A DNA stretch of 34,644 bases from positions 1 through 34,644 of the forward strand of contig JAJYJX010000001.1 in the NCBI GenBank assembly GCA_021789095.1, given 5' to 3'. Under the pieces are notes generated by a model that did no database searches, was not told the DNA's origin, and saw nothing but the letters and a program-made list of their open reading frames with translations. Each line of letters opens with the position of its first letter. Position 1 is the first letter of the stretch. The translations under genes and the position numbers were made by a program. The DNA comes from a bacterium (GTDB taxonomy: Bacteria > JAMCPX01). Of the stretch, positions 5,009 to 11,702 are shown in pieces.

Positions 5009-6865
5009 TTATCGTGGTAGTTTGCTTATGATCTGCTTCAGTATGGCAGCGTCTTCTTGATAGGGGTCAAGGTAAAGGCTCATTTCAATGGCTTTTCTTG
5101 CTGCATAAGTGTTGTTTGTATATTTCAAATAAAATTCTCCGAGTAGCCTGTAAAACACGGCATTGTCCTGGTGTGATGCTATTATCTCCTTTAACAAGGA
5201 TATTGCCTTCTCTGTTTTGCCATTATTAGCGTAAAAGTCGGTAAGCTCATCTATAAAATCAAGATTATATGGATCTGTCAGAACACAGGTTCTGAGCTCC
5301 TTCTCATAATCAGTGTAGTCCTTTGTTTTCTGGTAATAAACAGCAAGTAAGTGCCTGTAATTTACGTTGTCAGGCGCATACTTTATAGCCTTTTTAATAT
5401 AGAGAAGTGCCTTGCCATACTCCTTGTTCTGCAAATAGTAAAGACTGAAGCCTGCCAGGATATCCGTATCATATGGATTTAATTTCAACCCTGTCTCAGC
5501 CTGTTTCAGTGCCTCGGGTATTTTGTTGTCAGCGACAAGTGCCCATGCATACATTTTATGACCAAAATAATAATCAGGAAGTTTCTCGGTTACATTTCTC
5601 CAGAGATGCTCGTCGTCTTTCCATACACCTACCCTCTGATAAGCAAGTATACCGAAAACAAGTAAAATAATACCTGCTACTGCGATACCGGGTTTTCTGG
5701 TACTCTGTGTAGTATAAAGGTATTCAAGCCCCATGCCGATCAATACATAAATGCCTATGGATGGCAGGATCAGATTAATATTTGTGAAATTATATACCGG
5801 CAGTATACCAAACCCGGGGATCATGTTTGCAAAATACCATGACATCCAGAAAAAGCCTGAATGATGCTTTCTGTAGAGATGGATCATAAGATATAGGAAT
5901 GCCGCCAGTAGTATAATGCTTATGACAAGCCTTGGCGAGAACAGGTTGTATATTACGGATTGAGGATAGAGGGAAACGAGCTTGAATGGCAGGACGATCC
6001 TGTTCGGGTATCCCAGTATGCCTGAGATGTTTGGTATCAACGAAAGGATATGACTGGAAATGTTTCCACCGGTAAGTCCGTTTTTATTCATGAGTATCTG
6101 TCCGATTAAAAATATAGATACAGATATGGCGGATATTATGTAGAATGGAAGCTGAATAAAAAAGATACTCAAAAAATGTTTTCTGTAAATGTACCATTCC
6201 ATTATCAGGATTATAAGTACAACTGTTGCGGCGGATTGTTTTGTCAGGATTGCACAGAGGAATGCAAGTAAACTTACCGCATAAGACAACCTGCTGCCTT
6301 TCTTTATAAAGGAGTTATATTCAATCAGCGCTACAAGGGCAAAGAAAACGGACTGTGTACTGCCGAGTGCTGAAACCCATGCTGCCGAGTCAACATTTAC
6401 GGGCGCGAGCAGAAATAAGATTGCAGCTATCGCTGCTGTGAACCCCGTTAAAGAACCCTGCTCTTGAACAGTTGGTACCGCCGGTGAATCTGGTTCAGAG
6501 GCTTTCTCCAACGGGGTGAACACTGTTTCGATCCTTTTTACAAAAAGGTAAACGAGCATTGCGTCGGCGATGAATATCAAGGCATTCAATGCGTGAAGCC
6601 ACAAAGGCTTAATGCCCGTTATACTGTAGATCAACATGTAAGTGAACAGGTGGAATGGTCCATAAAATCCGTTGTTATAGTAATGTGTAAAAATGTATCG
6701 TATGTTGTGAAATGTTAACCCCTTTATGGAAGGATCGTTTGTTATAAAAAGACTGTCGCCCCAGCTTAAAAGCGGGAATGATAATACGCGGTGATATATT
6801 ATTATACCCAGTACTGCCAGTATAAAGAGTACCAGTTTGTCATTTATTGTTTGTTTGTTTTCCAT
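5009..6865 (-). CDS. Polytopic GT-C-type (PMT/TMTC/ArnT-like) glycosyltransferase fused to C-terminal TPR repeats, paralog B
   Basis: The N-terminal roughly 400 aa has many hydrophobic helices and a first-loop motif LLSWGDSLFITNDP. The conserved WYFANMIPGFGI segment is shared with the upstream paralog. The C-terminal roughly 200 aa are TPR-like (ALKQAETGLKLNPYD, YIKKAIKYAPDN). Confidence 0.6.
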   Translation of the reverse strand: MENKQTINDKLVLFILAVLGIIIYHRVLSFPLLSWGDSLFITNDPSIKGLTFHNIRYIFTHYYNNGFYGPFHLFTYMLIYSITGIKPLWLHALNALIFIADAMLVYLFVKRIETVFTPLEKASEPDSPAVPTVQEQGSLTGFTAAIAAILFLLAPVNVDSAAWVSALGSTQSVFFALVALIEYNSFIKKGSRLSYAVSLLAFLCAILTKQSAATVVLIILIMEWYIYRKHFLSIFFIQLPFYIISAISVSIFLIGQILMNKNGLTGGNISSHILSLIPNISGILGYPNRIVLPFKLVSLYPQSVIYNLFSPRLVISIILLAAFLYLMIHLYRKHHSGFFWMSWYFANMIPGFGILPVYNFTNINLILPSIGIYVLIGMGLEYLYTTQSTRKPGIAVAGIILLVFGILAYQRVGVWKDDEHLWRNVTEKLPDYYFGHKMYAWALVADNKIPEALKQAETGLKLNPYDTDILAGFSLYYLQNKEYGKALLYIKKAIKYAPDNVNYRHLLAVYYQKTKDYTDYEKELRTCVLTDPYNLDFIDELTDFYANNGKTEKAISLLKEIIASHQDNAVFYRLLGEFYLKYTNNTYAARKAIEMSLYLDPYQEDAAILKQIISKLPR

Positions 6866-8673
6866 GATTCCAGCAACAGTTTGATCTCACCTGCATATTG
6901 TTGTTCAGGTGCAAGTTCAAGGCTTTTTTTAAAGTATTTTATGGCAAGCTGTTGATCATGATAGTACCGTGCTGTTATGTAACCAAGCATGCGCCATGCA
7001 TCAGCGTCAAGCGGTTTCAACGCAACAAGTTTTGCAAGCAGGTTTCTTGCCTCGCTTACCTTGCCTGTCTGTACATAGATATATGCAAGCTTTTCATATG
7101 CCGGAACATAAGGTGCCGCATCAACTGCCTTGATGAGCAGTGCAACGGCCTGATCGATATGATTCTGATTTCCGGCCAGGGTTATCTCTGCCATTTCAAA
7201 GTATATCATCGCCTTTAATGTTGAGGGGGTGTCTCCGAACCCTGGCAAAACAGCTATGTCAGCATGACCTTCTTTTTCGAGCTTGTTGAGCTGGCTTAAA
7301 GCCTCATCAAGCATGGCCTGTGCCCTGGTGTAATCACCTGTGTCTGCATAAGCCTTTGCTATAAAGTATTTCATTGCGACAAAGTCGGGTGTTCTGCTGA
7401 GAAGTTTCCTGCCGTATTCGATACCTTCGTACGGTTCGTTGTTCCTGAGATAAGCGGCTGACAGTGACATAAGAATAGAAGTATCGTCACCAACAGCATG
7501 GAGAGAGCTTGTCCACATGCTTATCTCGTTTTTCCATACAAATTGCCTTTTGAATCCCAGGAACCCGTAAACAAGCAGTATGAGAGCAAGGAACACATAT
7601 GCAATCTTTTTATTATCAATCCTGTTGATAGAAATTACCAGTGTGGTGTACACGCCGATAGAGGCTATGTAGAGATACCAGTTTGCAAAGAACGGCATCG
7701 CGATAATGCCGTAATAAGGCAGCATATTTGCAAAGTACCAGATGATCCAGAATACAAGTAGGAACTCCTTTCTTTTCACCAGTTCTTTAATGCCGATGAT
7801 TATAAAGACCATTATAAGAAGGCTGAGAACGAATCTTGTATTTGAAACTATTGCATCAAGGGGATACGCTATAGAAAGTCTTACAGGAAAAAGCAGCTTT
7901 GAGGGGTATTCGGGCAACCCGGCCATAACTGCAATAACGGTTTTTGTATTTGACCAGAGGCTGTTGCCTATAAGGCCGTGATAAGAACCGATAGTCGCCT
8001 GACCTATCATGAAAATGATCATAAACACCAGAGAGGCTGATGCATAAGGGAGAAGATTAAAGATACTGTTTTTCATTGTCTTGCTGTTGATCAGATCATA
8101 CAGGAACATCATGATTATAAGGGTGGCCCCCGGTGCCTTGACAAGTAACCCGAGAATAAACCCGATGAACGAGCATGCGTAAAGGCTTTTTCTATTCCTG
8201 CTTCTGTACAGCGTATAAAAGTAAAACCCCGACAAAAAGAAAAATAATGACTGCGTGTTTTTCAGTTCCGCTATCCATACCGCCGAATCTATGTTGACGG
8301 GTGATACAAGAAAGAGGAGTGAAGAAAATAATGCCGTGATCCTGTCATGCTGGATCTCATCAACGACCATGTATACCATTACGCCCGACAGTATATGGAA
8401 GATAATCCCGGTCAGGTGGTAAGCCATTGCGTGATAACCCGATATACGGTAAAGGAGCATGTAGGTAAGATACTGAATGGGTGCATATACGCCGTGATGA
8501 AACGAGGTAAAGAAATAGATGATATTGCTCATGGAGAAGTGCCTTATGTACACATTGTCCGTTACATAGAAGTTGTCGTCCAGGTTTACGAACCCGAACC
8601 GCAGTGACGGCAAAAGCATCAGAAATGTTACAACGCTTATAAGTAATATGTCAGGCCATTTTCTTTTTGTCAT
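6844..8673 (-). CDS. Polytopic GT-C-type (PMT/TMTC/ArnT-like) glycosyltransferase fused to C-terminal TPR repeats, paralog A
   Basis: It has the same architecture as 5009-6865. The first-loop motif FVNLDDNFYVTDN matches the F-x-x-DD-x-x-x-I-x-x-N signature I recall for TMTC/DUF1736-type enzymes. It also carries WYFANMLPYYGI and C-terminal TPRs. It overlaps the downstream paralog by 22 nt. Confidence 0.6.
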   Translation of the reverse strand: MTKRKWPDILLISVVTFLMLLPSLRFGFVNLDDNFYVTDNVYIRHFSMSNIIYFFTSFHHGVYAPIQYLTYMLLYRISGYHAMAYHLTGIIFHILSGVMVYMVVDEIQHDRITALFSSLLFLVSPVNIDSAVWIAELKNTQSLFFFLSGFYFYTLYRSRNRKSLYACSFIGFILGLLVKAPGATLIIMMFLYDLINSKTMKNSIFNLLPYASASLVFMIIFMIGQATIGSYHGLIGNSLWSNTKTVIAVMAGLPEYPSKLLFPVRLSIAYPLDAIVSNTRFVLSLLIMVFIIIGIKELVKRKEFLLVFWIIWYFANMLPYYGIIAMPFFANWYLYIASIGVYTTLVISINRIDNKKIAYVFLALILLVYGFLGFKRQFVWKNEISMWTSSLHAVGDDTSILMSLSAAYLRNNEPYEGIEYGRKLLSRTPDFVAMKYFIAKAYADTGDYTRAQAMLDEALSQLNKLEKEGHADIAVLPGFGDTPSTLKAMIYFEMAEITLAGNQNHIDQAVALLIKAVDAAPYVPAYEKLAYIYVQTGKVSEARNLLAKLVALKPLDADAWRMLGYITARYYHDQQLAIKYFKKSLELAPEQQYAGEIKLLLESWKTNKQ

Positions 8674-8806: not shown

Positions 8807-9169
8807 ATGACGAAAGTCAGGATAATGAAGATTGTAGGGTTTGTTCTCGTCTTTGTGTTTGCAACCAATGCAGCTTTTGCATTCGCAGCAAGTCACCACC
8901 TGACAAATTTCGCCAAAATCCATCATACAAGTAAGAAAAGAGCTTCAAACTTGACCTCTGATGACCCTGATCCAGACAGTGATTTCAAAGCCGCATTTTA
9001 TCCGGTCAGGCATCACATAAAAAGGCAGTATAATTCAATCAGTGCTATGATTACTGTCCCTCCAATACTTGATCCCTTAATCAACGACGGTATCGTTCCA
9101 ATAAAAACATCTCATCCGTCTTTAAACAACCTTTCCGACATCTTCATTCCACCAAAAAACAGAACATAA
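8807..9169 (+). CDS. Hypothetical small secreted protein
   Basis: It has a signal-peptide-like N-terminus (MKIVGFVLVFVFATNAAFAFA), and GGGAG lies about 11 nt upstream of ATG 8807. I recognise no family, and overlapping alternative ORFs exist on both strands. Confidence 0.4.
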   Translation: MTKVRIMKIVGFVLVFVFATNAAFAFAASHHLTNFAKIHHTSKKRASNLTSDDPDPDSDFKAAFYPVRHHIKRQYNSISAMITVPPILDPLINDGIVPIKTSHPSLNNLSDIFIPPKNRT

Positions 9170-9180
9170 TTGTCCGTTTT

Positions 9181-9260
9181 GTCATTCCGTGCTGTGACAC
9201 GGAATCCAGTCTTCTGGTTTTTCGGATTCCTACTTTCACAGAAATGACGCAATTCTGTGA
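9181..9260. repeat. Imperfect palindromic intergenic (REP/MITE-like) element with two hairpins
   Basis: The outer arms are GTCATTCC...GGAATCC (9181-9207) and GGATTCC...GAAATGAC (9224-9248). Hairpin 1 pairs ATTCCGTG (9184-9191) with CACGGAAT (9198-9205). Hairpin 2 pairs TCACAGAA (9236-9243) with TTCTGTGA (9253-9260). Confidence 0.45.
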
Positions 9261-9322: not shown

Positions 9323-11194
9323 ATGAAGATCAAAAAATTAAATAAGTACGTATGGTTCATCGGGTTGCTGTTGTTATCAGTAACAATGAGTATATCCGGC
9401 ATTGGTTGTAACAGTGGTGGTGGATCGGGCAGTAATTTAGCTAAGAAAAATATAAGCAGAATAGGTGGAGCAGCCAGTAACAACACCGGTAGAAGCAGGA
9501 TTCCTGCAGGCACCCCGGGCAGTGGTTTTTCTGCGACCTGCTACGACAATGGTGAGATCTATGTTGCCAATCAAAGTAGTAATTCCATTACCGTGTATAG
9601 CAGGACAGCCTCAGGAAACGTGGCGCCCCTGCGTACTATATCAGGTACTACCACTGGTCTATATAGACCAGGTGGCATTACAGTAGATACTGTGAACAAT
9701 GAGATCGATATTGTTAATGGTAGTGATAATTATTATAATAATTCCATTACCGTGTATAGCAGAACAGCCTCAGGAAACGTGGCACCCCTGCGTACTATAT
9801 CAGGTACTACCACTGGTCTAAATAGTCCAAATGGTATTGCAGTGGACACTGTTAACAACGAGATCGATGTGGCAAATCACTATGGACCCGTTACTGTTTA
9901 TGCACGAACTGCCTCGGGAAATGTGATGCCGCTGCGTATCTTTTATCCGGGCATATTTTCTTATATGAAATCCTTTTGGGGTATTGCTGTGGATCCTGTT
10001 AACAACGAGATCTATATAACAGATAATGTTAATGGTATGGGAATCCCTTATCAGACTGCCATTATTGTATATCCACGGACAGCCTCAGGAAACGTGGCAC
10101 CCCTGCGTACTATTTCAGGTACTACCACTGGTTTGGATTGGCCATGGGGCATTGCAGTGGATACGGTGAACAATCAGATAGATTGTTCCTCAGCTCAATC
10201 TTCTGCTTCTACAGGCTGTATGCTCGCAGGTGCCGTAGACTGTAATAATGGATATTACTGTCTATCAGGAACAATGTGTGCCCAGTCAGGTGGGCAGACT
10301 ATGTGCTATACTGGCTTTTGTGCAGCAACCTGTTCTGATGGTAGCTGCTGTCCTTCTGGTTATACTTGTGCTCCTAAAGGTGGCTGTATGCCATCAAGTG
10401 CTGTAGACTGTGGTAATGGATATTGCTGTCCATCAGGAGCAACGTGTGCCCAGTCAGGTGGGAAGACGGTGTGTGATAGCGGCACCTGTGGAACAACCTG
10501 TTCTGATGGGAGCTGCTGTCCATCAGGTGATACATGCGCTTCCATAGGTTGCATACCGACAGGCGCTATAGATTGTAGTAATGGATACTACTGTCCATCA
10601 GGAACAACATGTGGACAAGCGATATTTACAAGTGGGCAGACTAAGACTGTATGTAATGGAGGTGCTGGTTCAGTGGCATGTTCGGATGGAACTTACACTT
10701 ACTGTCCATCGGGCGATACGTGTGCTTATGCTGGTGGTTGTATACCATCGGGTACTGTAGACTGTAATAATGGATATTATTGCTCAGCTGGAACAACATG
10801 CAGCCCGACGACAAATGGACAGACGGTATGCAATCCGGTTGCGCCGAGATATTCATGCAGTGGAAGTTCCTGTGTATCCGATCCAAATGGTAGCTATACC
10901 GCCTCTAATTGTAACAACGCTTGCGGCGGAGGAGGTGGCGGTAGTACCTGCTCAAGCGACTCGGATTGTTCAGCTTTTGGGACGAACTGCTGTAGCGGCA
11001 GGAGCAATGCCTTCTGCGAATCCGATCACCTATGCCATTGTTGTGAAGTTCTCTGTGGTGGAGTTAGTGGTAATTGTTACTGTAATCCTTCCTGTTCGAG
11101 TTCATCGGGTTGTCCTACTGTCGGGGATGTCTGCTGGGAAAGTGCATGCACATTCCCTCTGGGCGGTGCTCCAAACAACCTGACTTGCCAATGA
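9323..11194 (+). CDS. Secreted (probably lipoprotein) beta-propeller-repeat protein with a long cysteine-rich repeat tail
   Basis: ATG 9323 follows AAGGAA (9311-9316). The signal sequence MKIKKLNKYVWFIGLLLLSVTMSISGIGC has a lipobox-like SGIGC. There are four NHL/YncE-like blades (ITVYSRTASGNVAPLRTISGTTTGL..GIAVDTVNNEID). These are followed by repeated modules VDCNNGYYCPSGTTC...CSDGSCCPSGDTC. I count about 55 Cys in the last roughly 340 residues. Confidence 0.75.
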   Translation: MKIKKLNKYVWFIGLLLLSVTMSISGIGCNSGGGSGSNLAKKNISRIGGAASNNTGRSRIPAGTPGSGFSATCYDNGEIYVANQSSNSITVYSRTASGNVAPLRTISGTTTGLYRPGGITVDTVNNEIDIVNGSDNYYNNSITVYSRTASGNVAPLRTISGTTTGLNSPNGIAVDTVNNEIDVANHYGPVTVYARTASGNVMPLRIFYPGIFSYMKSFWGIAVDPVNNEIYITDNVNGMGIPYQTAIIVYPRTASGNVAPLRTISGTTTGLDWPWGIAVDTVNNQIDCSSAQSSASTGCMLAGAVDCNNGYYCLSGTMCAQSGGQTMCYTGFCAATCSDGSCCPSGYTCAPKGGCMPSSAVDCGNGYCCPSGATCAQSGGKTVCDSGTCGTTCSDGSCCPSGDTCASIGCIPTGAIDCSNGYYCPSGTTCGQAIFTSGQTKTVCNGGAGSVACSDGTYTYCPSGDTCAYAGGCIPSGTVDCNNGYYCSAGTTCSPTTNGQTVCNPVAPRYSCSGSSCVSDPNGSYTASNCNNACGGGGGGSTCSSDSDCSAFGTNCCSGRSNAFCESDHLCHCCEVLCGGVSGNCYCNPSCSSSSGCPTVGDVCWESACTFPLGGAPNNLTCQ

Positions 11195-11209: not shown

Positions 11210-11234
11210 GCAGGGCGGGCTTTGCCCGCCCTGC
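11210..11234 (+). terminator. GC-rich hairpin downstream of the lipoprotein gene (no U-tract)
   Basis: CAGGGCGGG (11211-11219) pairs with CCCGCCCTG (11225-11233) around loop CTTTG. It starts 16 nt after the stop codon and has no following T-run, so it is not a textbook intrinsic terminator. Confidence 0.4.
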
Positions 11235-11315
11235 ATGCTGAGCACAAAAGATTGGAGGCAAAGCAAACGCCTGTGGAGGAGAGCAGCCTTCGGTTGACTT
11301 TATAACGGGGTTTAC

Positions 11316-11343
11316 TTGACAAGTCGGTTTTTATCATTATTAT
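11316..11343 (+). promoter_or_regulatory. Sigma70-type promoter for rplU-rpmA
   Basis: TTGACA (11316-11321), a 16-nt spacer and TATTAT (11338-11343) lie about 35 nt upstream of the rplU ATG. The RBS is GAGGAAG. Confidence 0.5.
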
Positions 11344-11378
11344 GTAACAGGATTTAATCAAACCAAAGTGAGGAAGAG

Positions 11379-11702
11379 ATGTACGCAGTTATTAAACATT
11401 CCGGGAAACAATACACGGTAAAGCAGGGAGACATAGTTGCTCTCGACAGAATAGAGAATGCACAGAAAGATGCAGAACTGCAGCTCCAGGATGTTTTACT
11501 CATAAATAACGGTTCAAACACGCTTATCGGCAACCCTGTGGTTGCAGATGCATTTGTTAAAGTTAAAGTGCTTGGTGAAGCAAAGGGAAGCAAGGTTGTA
11601 ATCTTCAAACACAAGAGAAGGAAGAATTACAGGAAGAAGCAGGGCTTCCGCCAGATTTTTACGAAAGTAAAAGTCGAAGATATTGTATATAAGGGTAATT
11701 GA
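11379..11702 (+). CDS. rplU: 50S ribosomal protein L21
   Basis: The N-terminus MYAVIKHSGKQYTVKQGD is typical of L21, and it lies upstream of rpmA. Confidence 0.95.
   Translation: MYAVIKHSGKQYTVKQGDIVALDRIENAQKDAELQLQDVLLINNGSNTLIGNPVVADAFVKVKVLGEAKGSKVVIFKHKRRKNYRKKQGFRQIFTKVKVEDIVYKGN

Follow-up and report, generated by a model that had tools for sequence, protein, structure and literature searches.

A putative bacterial lipoprotein joining an NHL/YVTN-type beta-propeller to a granulin-like cysteine-rich tail

Loss of progranulin causes frontotemporal dementia, and in plants granulin modules are attached to immune proteases. An evolutionary review (PMC4527844) describes granulin in eukaryotes only, and literature searches for bacterial granulin domains turned up nothing relevant. 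Cysteine-rich hairpins have also been described in the CREMP modules, where the hairpin has the form Cx4Cx5Cx8C and its Cys pair as C1-C3 and C2-C4 (bioRxiv 10.1101/2025.09.16.676614). This study concerns a bacterial gene located at positions 9323-11194 of the forward strand in a sequence of 34,644 nucleotides (contig JAJYJX010000001.1 of GenBank assembly GCA_021789095.1), referred to here as the window. The gene is read, with somewhat better than even confidence, as encoding an envelope lipoprotein of an uncultured, Gram-negative (diderm) mine-drainage bacterium, with a propeller head, a granulin-like tail and a role in binding or adhesion.

The gene is a single uninterrupted open reading frame (ORF) of 623 codons (623 aa). 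A total of 57 Cys were counted in its product, where a first-pass annotation made from the sequence had given about 55, and 54 of the 57 lie beyond residue 290. This tail is a composite of three module types.

Granulin-like modules in the tail

The larger part of the tail is formed by 3.5 granulin-like Cys modules at residues 304-508 (10232-10846, forward strand) containing 10, 11, 8 and 4 Cys, delimited by alignment, DNA repeats, profile comparison with hhalign and an AlphaFold2 (AF2) model; DNA repeat families D2 and D3 cover the same stretch. Across 13 modules from five proteins (alignment A1), invariant Cys, Gly and Pro columns are held in common and the consensus reads xVDCGNGxYCPAGTxC-x4-GxTxC-x(6-8)-CxDGxxCPxGxxCAxxGCxPxG, with each module made of two alternating beta-hairpin halves of the form C-x5-C-x5-C-x(4-8)-C. 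The repeat named in the first-pass annotation, VDCxNGYYCPSGTTC...CSDGSCCPSGxTC, is present, and modules 1 and 2, with 81% DNA identity, arose by a recent tandem duplication. The same annotation had assigned about 340 residues to repeated modules; the modules do repeat, but their 3.5 copies make up no more than about 205 residues of a 333-residue tail. In this region the AF2 model shows nothing but beta-hairpins; its confidence here is moderate, with means over 10-residue blocks lying mostly at 59-83.

The relation to granulin was addressed by aligning the 13-module profile with hhalign to the five granulin modules of P0122, a metagenomic protein that resembles eukaryotic progranulin and has a match to Pfam Granulin (PF00396). 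A probability of 96.5% and a score of 45.8 were obtained over 49 of 55 columns. In the controls, 400 composition-preserving column shuffles of either alignment scored 10.6-11.8 +/- 2.7 with a maximum of 21.4, and the reversed comparison scored 18.1. Additionally, granulin chains were the only Cys-rich matches of the whole protein against the PDB by phmmer. With the Pfam Granulin model itself, the first module reached 13.5 bits against a gathering threshold of 20.9 (E 0.086, the best E-value of the 13 modules scanned singly), and the whole tail gave no match. The 12-Cys granulin motif, C-x5-6-C-x5-CC-x8-CC-x6-CC-x5-CC-x4-C-x5-6-C, does not describe the window modules, which have 10, 11 and 8 Cys in the spacing C-x5-C-x5-C-x8-C-x4-C-x3-C-x4-CC-x5-C-x5-C and at most two CC doublets. 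A Foldseek search with the tail model returned nothing at E up to 0.001, granulin C (2jyt) standing at rank 22 with an E-value of 1.9. The granulin likeness that had been proposed for the tail is thus upheld by the hhalign comparison, far above the shuffles, and is qualified by the Pfam score, the Cys number and the Foldseek result. Pfam and NCBIfam scans of the whole protein, the tail, the single modules and the homologs returned nothing above threshold except NHL; the first-pass annotation had named a match of the Cys-rich part to a well-known bacterial repeat family as grounds for rejection, and no above-threshold family emerged for the tail.

Bacterial intermediates were found in a metagenome scan, namely the lipoproteins L013 and L019, built of CPxGYPVDCGNGYCCPSGTTCxGGGxC repeats, and the related fragments L011 and L015. 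By hhalign these 6-Cys repeats reached probabilities of 96.9 against the window modules and 95.8 against granulin, both far above shuffles, and in the Pfam Granulin scan L019 scored 21.1 bits (cut-off 20.9) and L015 scored 20.6. The L019 gene lies on a 29-kb contig amid ordinary bacterial metabolic genes. In both L019 (3834-4580) and L013, an Asp-rich tether is followed by 6-Cys granulin-like repeats only. The two proteins are also further bacterial examples of disulfide-dense repeat tails, which runs counter to the earlier claim that such tails are unusual in bacterial envelope proteins.

Long arrays of the 6-Cys repeat CPxGYPVNCNNGYCCPSGxTC split by poly-Gly runs were additionally observed on microbial-mat metagenome contigs (L008, L009, L010 and L016; also L007, L014 and L018). 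Where these arrays reach the C-terminus, they end in a Hint (hedgehog/intein-type, PF01079) autoprocessing domain, and the Hint-linked arrays may be eukaryotic Hog-like proteins.

From the alignments, the window modules are read as part of a granulin-like CCPxGxxC hairpin class; they lie outside the curated family, and common ancestry of the modules and granulin appears likely. The competing explanation is convergence, under which the modules are two-disulfide beta-hairpin mini-domains (disulfide-directed hairpin, EGF-like or CREMP-like) and the term granulin-like is descriptive only. Sequence searches of the PDB gave weak matches only (granulin, CREMP and an inhibitor cystine knot (ICK) toxin), and the best PDB profile match was to avian CREMP (9pgb, E 0.0037), with granulin behind it at 0.28-0.59. 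The CREMP hairpin, Cx4Cx5Cx8C, nearly equals the Cx5Cx5Cx8C half-module found here; no single Pfam family stands out, Dickkopf_N, Granulin, DUF7107 and EGF-like families all being matched weakly; and the insignificant top matches from Foldseek are EGF-like and mucin repeats. However, the hhalign alignment is in register over its 49 of 55 columns, including xVDC...YCPxGxxC and CSDGxCCPxGYxC...C, its score lies about 13 standard deviations over the column shuffles, and the intermediate bacterial repeats attain the Granulin gathering score. Convergence is therefore regarded as possible but doubtful. A bolder reading, offered only tentatively, is that the granulin hairpin stack has true homologs in prokaryotes, namely these modules, and that a bacterial CCPxGxxC continuum (6-Cys lipoprotein repeats, 8-11-Cys window modules and Hint-linked microbial-mat arrays) is the source or an ancient sister of granulin. 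The present family would then be the first described case in which such modules are joined to an NHL propeller and end in a knottin-like cap, and selection in mine-drainage bacteria may have favoured it as an acid-stable rod on the surface. If this were true, a bacterial family with order-specific profile similarity and cut-off-reaching intermediates would give the granulin fold a prokaryotic context.

The granulin-like modules are followed by a 4-Cys mini-module, RYSCSGSSCVSDPNGSYTASNCNNACGG, with a Gly run at residues 509-537 (10847-10933, forward strand), which was delimited by its copies in other proteins and is conserved in P0230, a homolog from a different sample. The mini-module recurs in unrelated secreted proteins, with three tandem copies in P0121 (E 2e-8) and one in P0123. 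The consensus of the window copy and those in these two proteins is (K/R)YxCSGSSCVxDxNGxYTSSNCNxxCGG, and no database family matched it. In P0121, Pfam very weakly matched a peptidase M64-like domain (E 0.59), and P0123 contains Big_2 and InlB-B-repeat domains.

The protein ends in a terminal 16-Cys knot at residues 538-623 (10934-11194 including the stop codon, forward strand), delimited by conservation in P0230. The dense terminal Cys knot reported in the first-pass annotation was located at residues 571-591 (CHCCEVLCGGVSGNCYCNPSC), and the region opens with the knottin-like spacing C-x5-C-x6-CC-x7-C-x5-C at residues 543-571. This spacing, together with knottin-like spacing in the C-termini of P0219 and P0038, could be read to mean that mini-domains of the protease-inhibitor or toxin type are presented by the tail, with a granulin-like chain topped by a knottin-type cap, and that the protein is a surface inhibitor or antagonistic effector and not an adhesin. 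The only database match of the terminal knot is indeed an ICK neurotoxin in the PDB, but at an E-value of 0.043 the match is insignificant; the AF2 model of the knot is poor, and the window provides no secretion, immunity or toxin context and no PADLOC match. An inhibitor or toxin function is therefore considered very unlikely.

The propeller and its blade number

The tail is preceded by an NHL/YVTN-type beta-propeller at residues 67-290 (9521-10192, forward strand), comprising four full blades and two extra strands as assembled and delimited by Pfam, AF2 and Foldseek. Pfam NHL (PF01436) matched four stretches at 36.7 bits against a cut-off of 20 (E 3.4e-9), and the AF2 model built from a 56-sequence alignment placed residues 68-290 at a predicted local distance difference test (pLDDT) of 90-98. 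With this propeller model, Foldseek retrieved 1l0q, 3fvz, 8j72 and 3vgz at E 1e-9 to 1e-7 (probability 1.00), the best matches being an archaeal surface-layer YVTN propeller, the leptospiral Lp49, the NHL enzyme PAL, TRIM71-NHL and YncE. Both searches agree with the NHL/YncE-like propeller that the first-pass annotation had recognised. Relatives at E up to 0.001 number more than 5,500 representative proteins, almost all of them retrieved through the propeller repeat.

The almost invariant blade core ITVYSRTASGNVAPLRTISGTTTGL-x5-GIAVDTVNNEID was likewise recovered, in four near-identical repeats whose DNA copies are 76-88% identical. Of the four 53-residue blades claimed for the protein, the four full repeats hold, but their spacing is 53/49/56 aa and the count is probably too low. 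The AF2 propeller model contains 18 confident strands, or 4.5 blades, arranged as four 4-stranded blades plus two strands, so that the predicted structure is not a closed four-blade ring. Upstream of these strands, R59 is an invariant column of the 56-sequence alignment. This residue falls in line with the PLR arginine of each repeat, and AF2 places weak strands at residues 44-46 and 58-60; both observations point to a degenerate N-terminal repeat, which could close the propeller ring.

A second source of additional blades was seen in an independent assembly, made by Logan from run X1; this run is a mine drainage metagenome and holds 94% of the sampled words. In these data the repeat region is split into unitigs, and one contig carries an in-frame joint running from 9877 through ATTTTG back to 9737, which would insert one 49-residue blade (...VAN-IL-NNSITVY...). 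The word depth in X1 is 17-20 for the unit at 9737-9877 (forward strand), 8.1 for the piece entering it, 6.2 for the joint and 5.7 for the exit piece. Equal entry, joint and exit depths with a doubled depth of the unit would be expected from two tandem copies within one genome; the blade unit at 9737-9877 is probably duplicated in the real genome, and it is fairly likely that the window assembly collapsed one 49-aa blade (147 bp). With the extra blade, the true protein would be six-bladed, like the tail-bearing homologs with their approximately 6 propeller repeats. The propeller is therefore probably five- or six-bladed and not four-bladed. Overall, tandem duplication of blades and modules lets the gene expand and contract, and the case shows that internal repeats collapsed by assemblies can alter the apparent domain architecture.

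At the junction between propeller and tail, a degenerate half-module, C288...C299, occupies residues 288-303 (10184-10231, forward strand), and homologs carry C-x5-C-x4-C at the equivalent site. The first propeller strand carries a Cys (C73 in the window protein) in 5 of 5 tail-bearing members that retain the N-terminus vs. 29 of 157 other propeller homologs. This distribution suggests a clasp disulfide from C73 to the post-propeller half-module, which would join the two ends of the ring and may thereby hold it shut.

Export, gene integrity and genomic context

The N-terminus, MKIKKLNKYVWFIGLLLLSVTMSISGIG|C29 (MKIKKLNK...SISGIG|C29), has a positive n-region and a 20-residue hydrophobic core ahead of Cys29, and residues 1-29 (9323-9409, forward strand) were assigned as a signal peptide with the lipobox-like SGIG|C on the basis of the translation and the lipoboxes of homologs. 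Cys29 would be the lipid-modified residue. Compared with the lipobox [LVI][ASTVI][GAS]C, S-G-I-G-C carries an atypical Gly at -3, and it fits the looser PROSITE PS51257 pattern as judged by eye. Every full-length homolog of the same architecture has a canonical lipobox (P0094 LASC, P0118 LVAC, P0038 AASC and P0219 AAAC), and together with the lipobox-like signal these agree with the earlier description of the protein as a lipoprotein. A Gly/Ser/Asn-rich tether at residues 30-66 (9410-9520, forward strand; AF2 and alignment) leads into the degenerate N-terminal blade piece and is modelled at pLDDT below 50, with the two weak strands mentioned above falling within it. Combined, these features show that the protein is exported and probably lipid-anchored.

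The ORF is preceded by a ribosome-binding site (AGGA) nine bases 5' of the ATG; an alternative GTG start at 9257 would give a longer version in which only a basic leader is added. The base composition of the gene is the same as that of its surroundings. The first-pass annotation had allowed for a frame-shifted or chimeric gene in independent assemblies. The ORF proved intact, with the tail and stop codon on one independent Logan contig that has a single mismatch. A GC-rich perfect 11-bp hairpin (GCAGGGCGGGC TTT GCCCGCCCTGC), read directly from the sequence, lies 16 nt past the stop codon at 11210-11234 (forward strand) and likely represents a transcript end or stabiliser; it is not listed by the terminator scan because a T-tract is absent. 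The Logan contig departs from the window at 11243, just past this hairpin, and 11244-11398 is uncovered in X1, so the physical join of the gene to rplU lacks independent confirmation. A chimeric gene was considered and rejected, as the tail and stop codon share one independent contig and divergence starts only after the hairpin; the departure at 11243 instead fits an assembly break at the palindrome. The lipoprotein ORF itself is not in doubt, despite the unconfirmed join. Downstream, rplU has a sigma-70-like promoter (11/12 match) at 11316-11343.

The window is made up of housekeeping genes for the most part, in the order tig, clpP, clpX, lon, two GT-C/TPR genes (reverse strand), a small secreted ORF, the lipoprotein gene, rplU, rpmA, obg, proB, proA and nadD. 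The small ORF (8807-9169, forward strand, 120 aa) has a signal-like N-terminal segment (MKIVGFVLVFVFATNAAFAFA), ends 154 nt upstream of the lipoprotein gene and has no Pfam or PADLOC match. ClpP, L21, L27 and Obg are all singletons when clustered at 90% identity, and a genome scan with Obg gave a best identity of 59% with matches in scattered phyla. Lon is 76-83% identical to that of a small clade of metagenome-assembled genomes, one of them labelled Deltaproteobacteria, with the next match at 61%. The TonB-dependent receptors carried by these Lon-related genomes show the lineage to be diderm. In three relatives (L100, L102 and L103, Lon 79-83% identical), the tig-clpP-clpX-lon-GT-C/TPR block is kept, with GT-C/TPR in one or two copies, and is followed by hydrolase, Band_7, NfeD and TonB-dependent-receptor genes; no ortholog of the Cys-rich lipoprotein was found at the lon locus in the three relatives read. 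Since the GT-C/TPR genes are kept and the lipoprotein gene is not, synteny breaks off within the window in the interval from lon/GT-C to rplU.

This comparison also bears on the proposal that the lipoprotein is the dedicated substrate of the two divergent TMTC/PMT-like GT-C/TPR glycosyltransferases at 5009-8673 (reverse strand), which draws on the adjacent and divergent arrangement of the genes and on the Ser/Thr-rich tether and tail. The GT-C/TPR block, however, is kept in the three relatives without the Cys-rich lipoprotein; the two gene types are therefore paired in this genome specifically, and a dedicated substrate is considered very unlikely.

The combination of propeller and VDC modules was recognised in eight proteins or fragments (P0001, P0038, P0094, P0107, P0118, P0219, P0230 and L012), and the homologs derive from several different metagenome datasets. 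Module number and C-terminal cap differ among these members. A tail-only word search of a 5.8-billion-cluster collection returned four other proteins, with the architecture in P0038 only, and no relative was found when species-representative genome contigs were scanned with a profile of the module alignment. Searches of plasmids and phages with tblastn and a PADLOC scan also returned nothing. P0230, the closest relative of the tail, is 68% identical over residues 415-623, all 28 aligned Cys are kept and dN/dS is 0.26; the ratio and the kept Cys reflect purifying selection on the tail. The P0230 copy (L003 1-1618) is 5'-truncated with a frame break near nt 600-650. It is preceded by an NHL-type ORF that is unrelated and followed by a transposase remnant, and its appearance suggests either decay of the copy or low coverage in the assembly.

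The ITVY/NHL propeller is elsewhere fused to SLH, FN3, PKD-like or Ig-like modules according to Pfam. In P0091 and P0131, from other bacteria, the same propeller is joined to a different Cys repeat, CxDGNxCTxxDxCxxGxC, which resembles the myxobacterial Cys-rich repeat. Because of these varied fusions, the tail is one of several interchangeable extracytoplasmic add-ons, and the fusions point to an extracytoplasmic, modular surface protein. The CxDGNxCT repeat of P0091 and P0131 is absent from the window protein, and an NCBIfam scan for the Myxococcus-type Cys-rich repeat (as in TraA) gave a weak YVTN match only. Overall, the feature is real and rare and is a new variant in the granulin-like/disulfide-hairpin class.

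Proposed role and comparison with known systems

Under the favoured reading as an envelope lipoprotein, the propeller would serve as a ligand-binding head. The 56 Cys of the mature protein would be oxidised to about 28 disulfides via the ordinary periplasmic Dsb pathway, producing a stiff, terminally capped rod that would withstand acid and proteases. With the lipid anchor at the N-terminus, this rod would point away from the membrane. The protein would then be a binding or adhesion protein of the periplasm or cell surface, with the tail as a second docking element or spacer. The dedicated folding route suggested in the first-pass annotation found no evidence; in one relative, a DsbA-like gene near the syntenic region suggests an ordinary periplasmic pathway.

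Several points weigh against this reading. The Gly at -3 of the lipobox is unusual, every window module falls below the Pfam Granulin threshold, and the tail model is without a significant structural relative in Foldseek. The terminal third is at pLDDT below 50 in both AF2 models. The Cys total of the mature protein is even, as are the counts of most module groups, but module 2 (11 Cys) and the C73/C288/C299 group have odd counts; some disulfides must therefore cross module borders, and Cys pairing cannot all be intra-module. Finally, the gene has no conserved neighbourhood and is absent at the lon locus in the three relatives.

The abundance of Cys could alternatively mark a metal-binding (metallothionein-like) thiolate sponge or sensor, which would suit metal-rich mine drainage. 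The sample is a mine drainage metagenome, the terminal knot contains CHCC, CxC and CC motifs, and a few modules have weak Metallothio_6 or zinc-finger Pfam matches. These Pfam metal-family matches are far below threshold, however, and the Cys are spaced, among conserved Gly, Pro and aromatics, as in disulfide hairpins. Additionally, export puts the protein in an oxidising compartment, the number of mature Cys is even, and the homologs come from several metagenome datasets. Metal binding is therefore judged unlikely, and the envelope lipoprotein with a disulfide-bonded tail is preferred. The modules would serve as small systems for studies of the folding and binding of hairpin-stack mini-domains, and the window protein adds to growing evidence that bacteria bear many uncatalogued disulfide-rich mini-domains on lipoproteins.

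Compared with known systems, the propeller shares the repeat ITVY..ASGN.AP.RTI.G..TGL..P.GIAVD..NNEI of the NHL/YVTN/YncE group (COG3391) with thousands of bacterial relatives, of which, among those inspected, only 8 have the Cys-rich tail. Solved structures of this group have 6-7 blades (6 for NHL and 7 for YVTN/YncE), whereas 4.5-5 repeats are present here as assembled. The terminal knot resembles the knottins (inhibitor cystine knots) in the spacing at residues 543-571, with a similar C-terminus in P0219 (C-x6-C-x6-CC-x4-C-x4-C); it differs in that the match is weak (E 0.043) and in that ten further Cys follow in the window protein, at pLDDT below 50. The half-module, with its YCPxGTxC hairpin, is similar to that of CREMP, which likewise forms a tandem, extended chain of modules, but CREMP is an animal matrix protein with a single 4-Cys hairpin unit, whereas two different halves alternate here and are bridged by extra Cys.

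The uncatalogued 6-Cys lipoprotein repeats (L019, L013, L015 and L011) have the VDCGNGYCCPSGTTC hairpin in common with the window modules and likewise occur as tandem arrays on lipoproteins with acidic or Gly-rich tethers, whereas their unit is approximately 30 residues with 6 Cys in another spacing and they are without a propeller. Granulin itself (PF00396; human 2JYE and 2JYT) and the window modules are both approximately 55-residue, all-beta, tandem modules with the same order of segments, xDC-x5-C-PxG-xxC ... C-SDG-x-CC-PxG-YxC-x5-C. Granulin has 12 Cys where the window modules have 8-11, most CC doublets being reduced to a single Cys, and the window modules differ further from granulin in being bacterial, putatively lipid-anchored and fused to a propeller.

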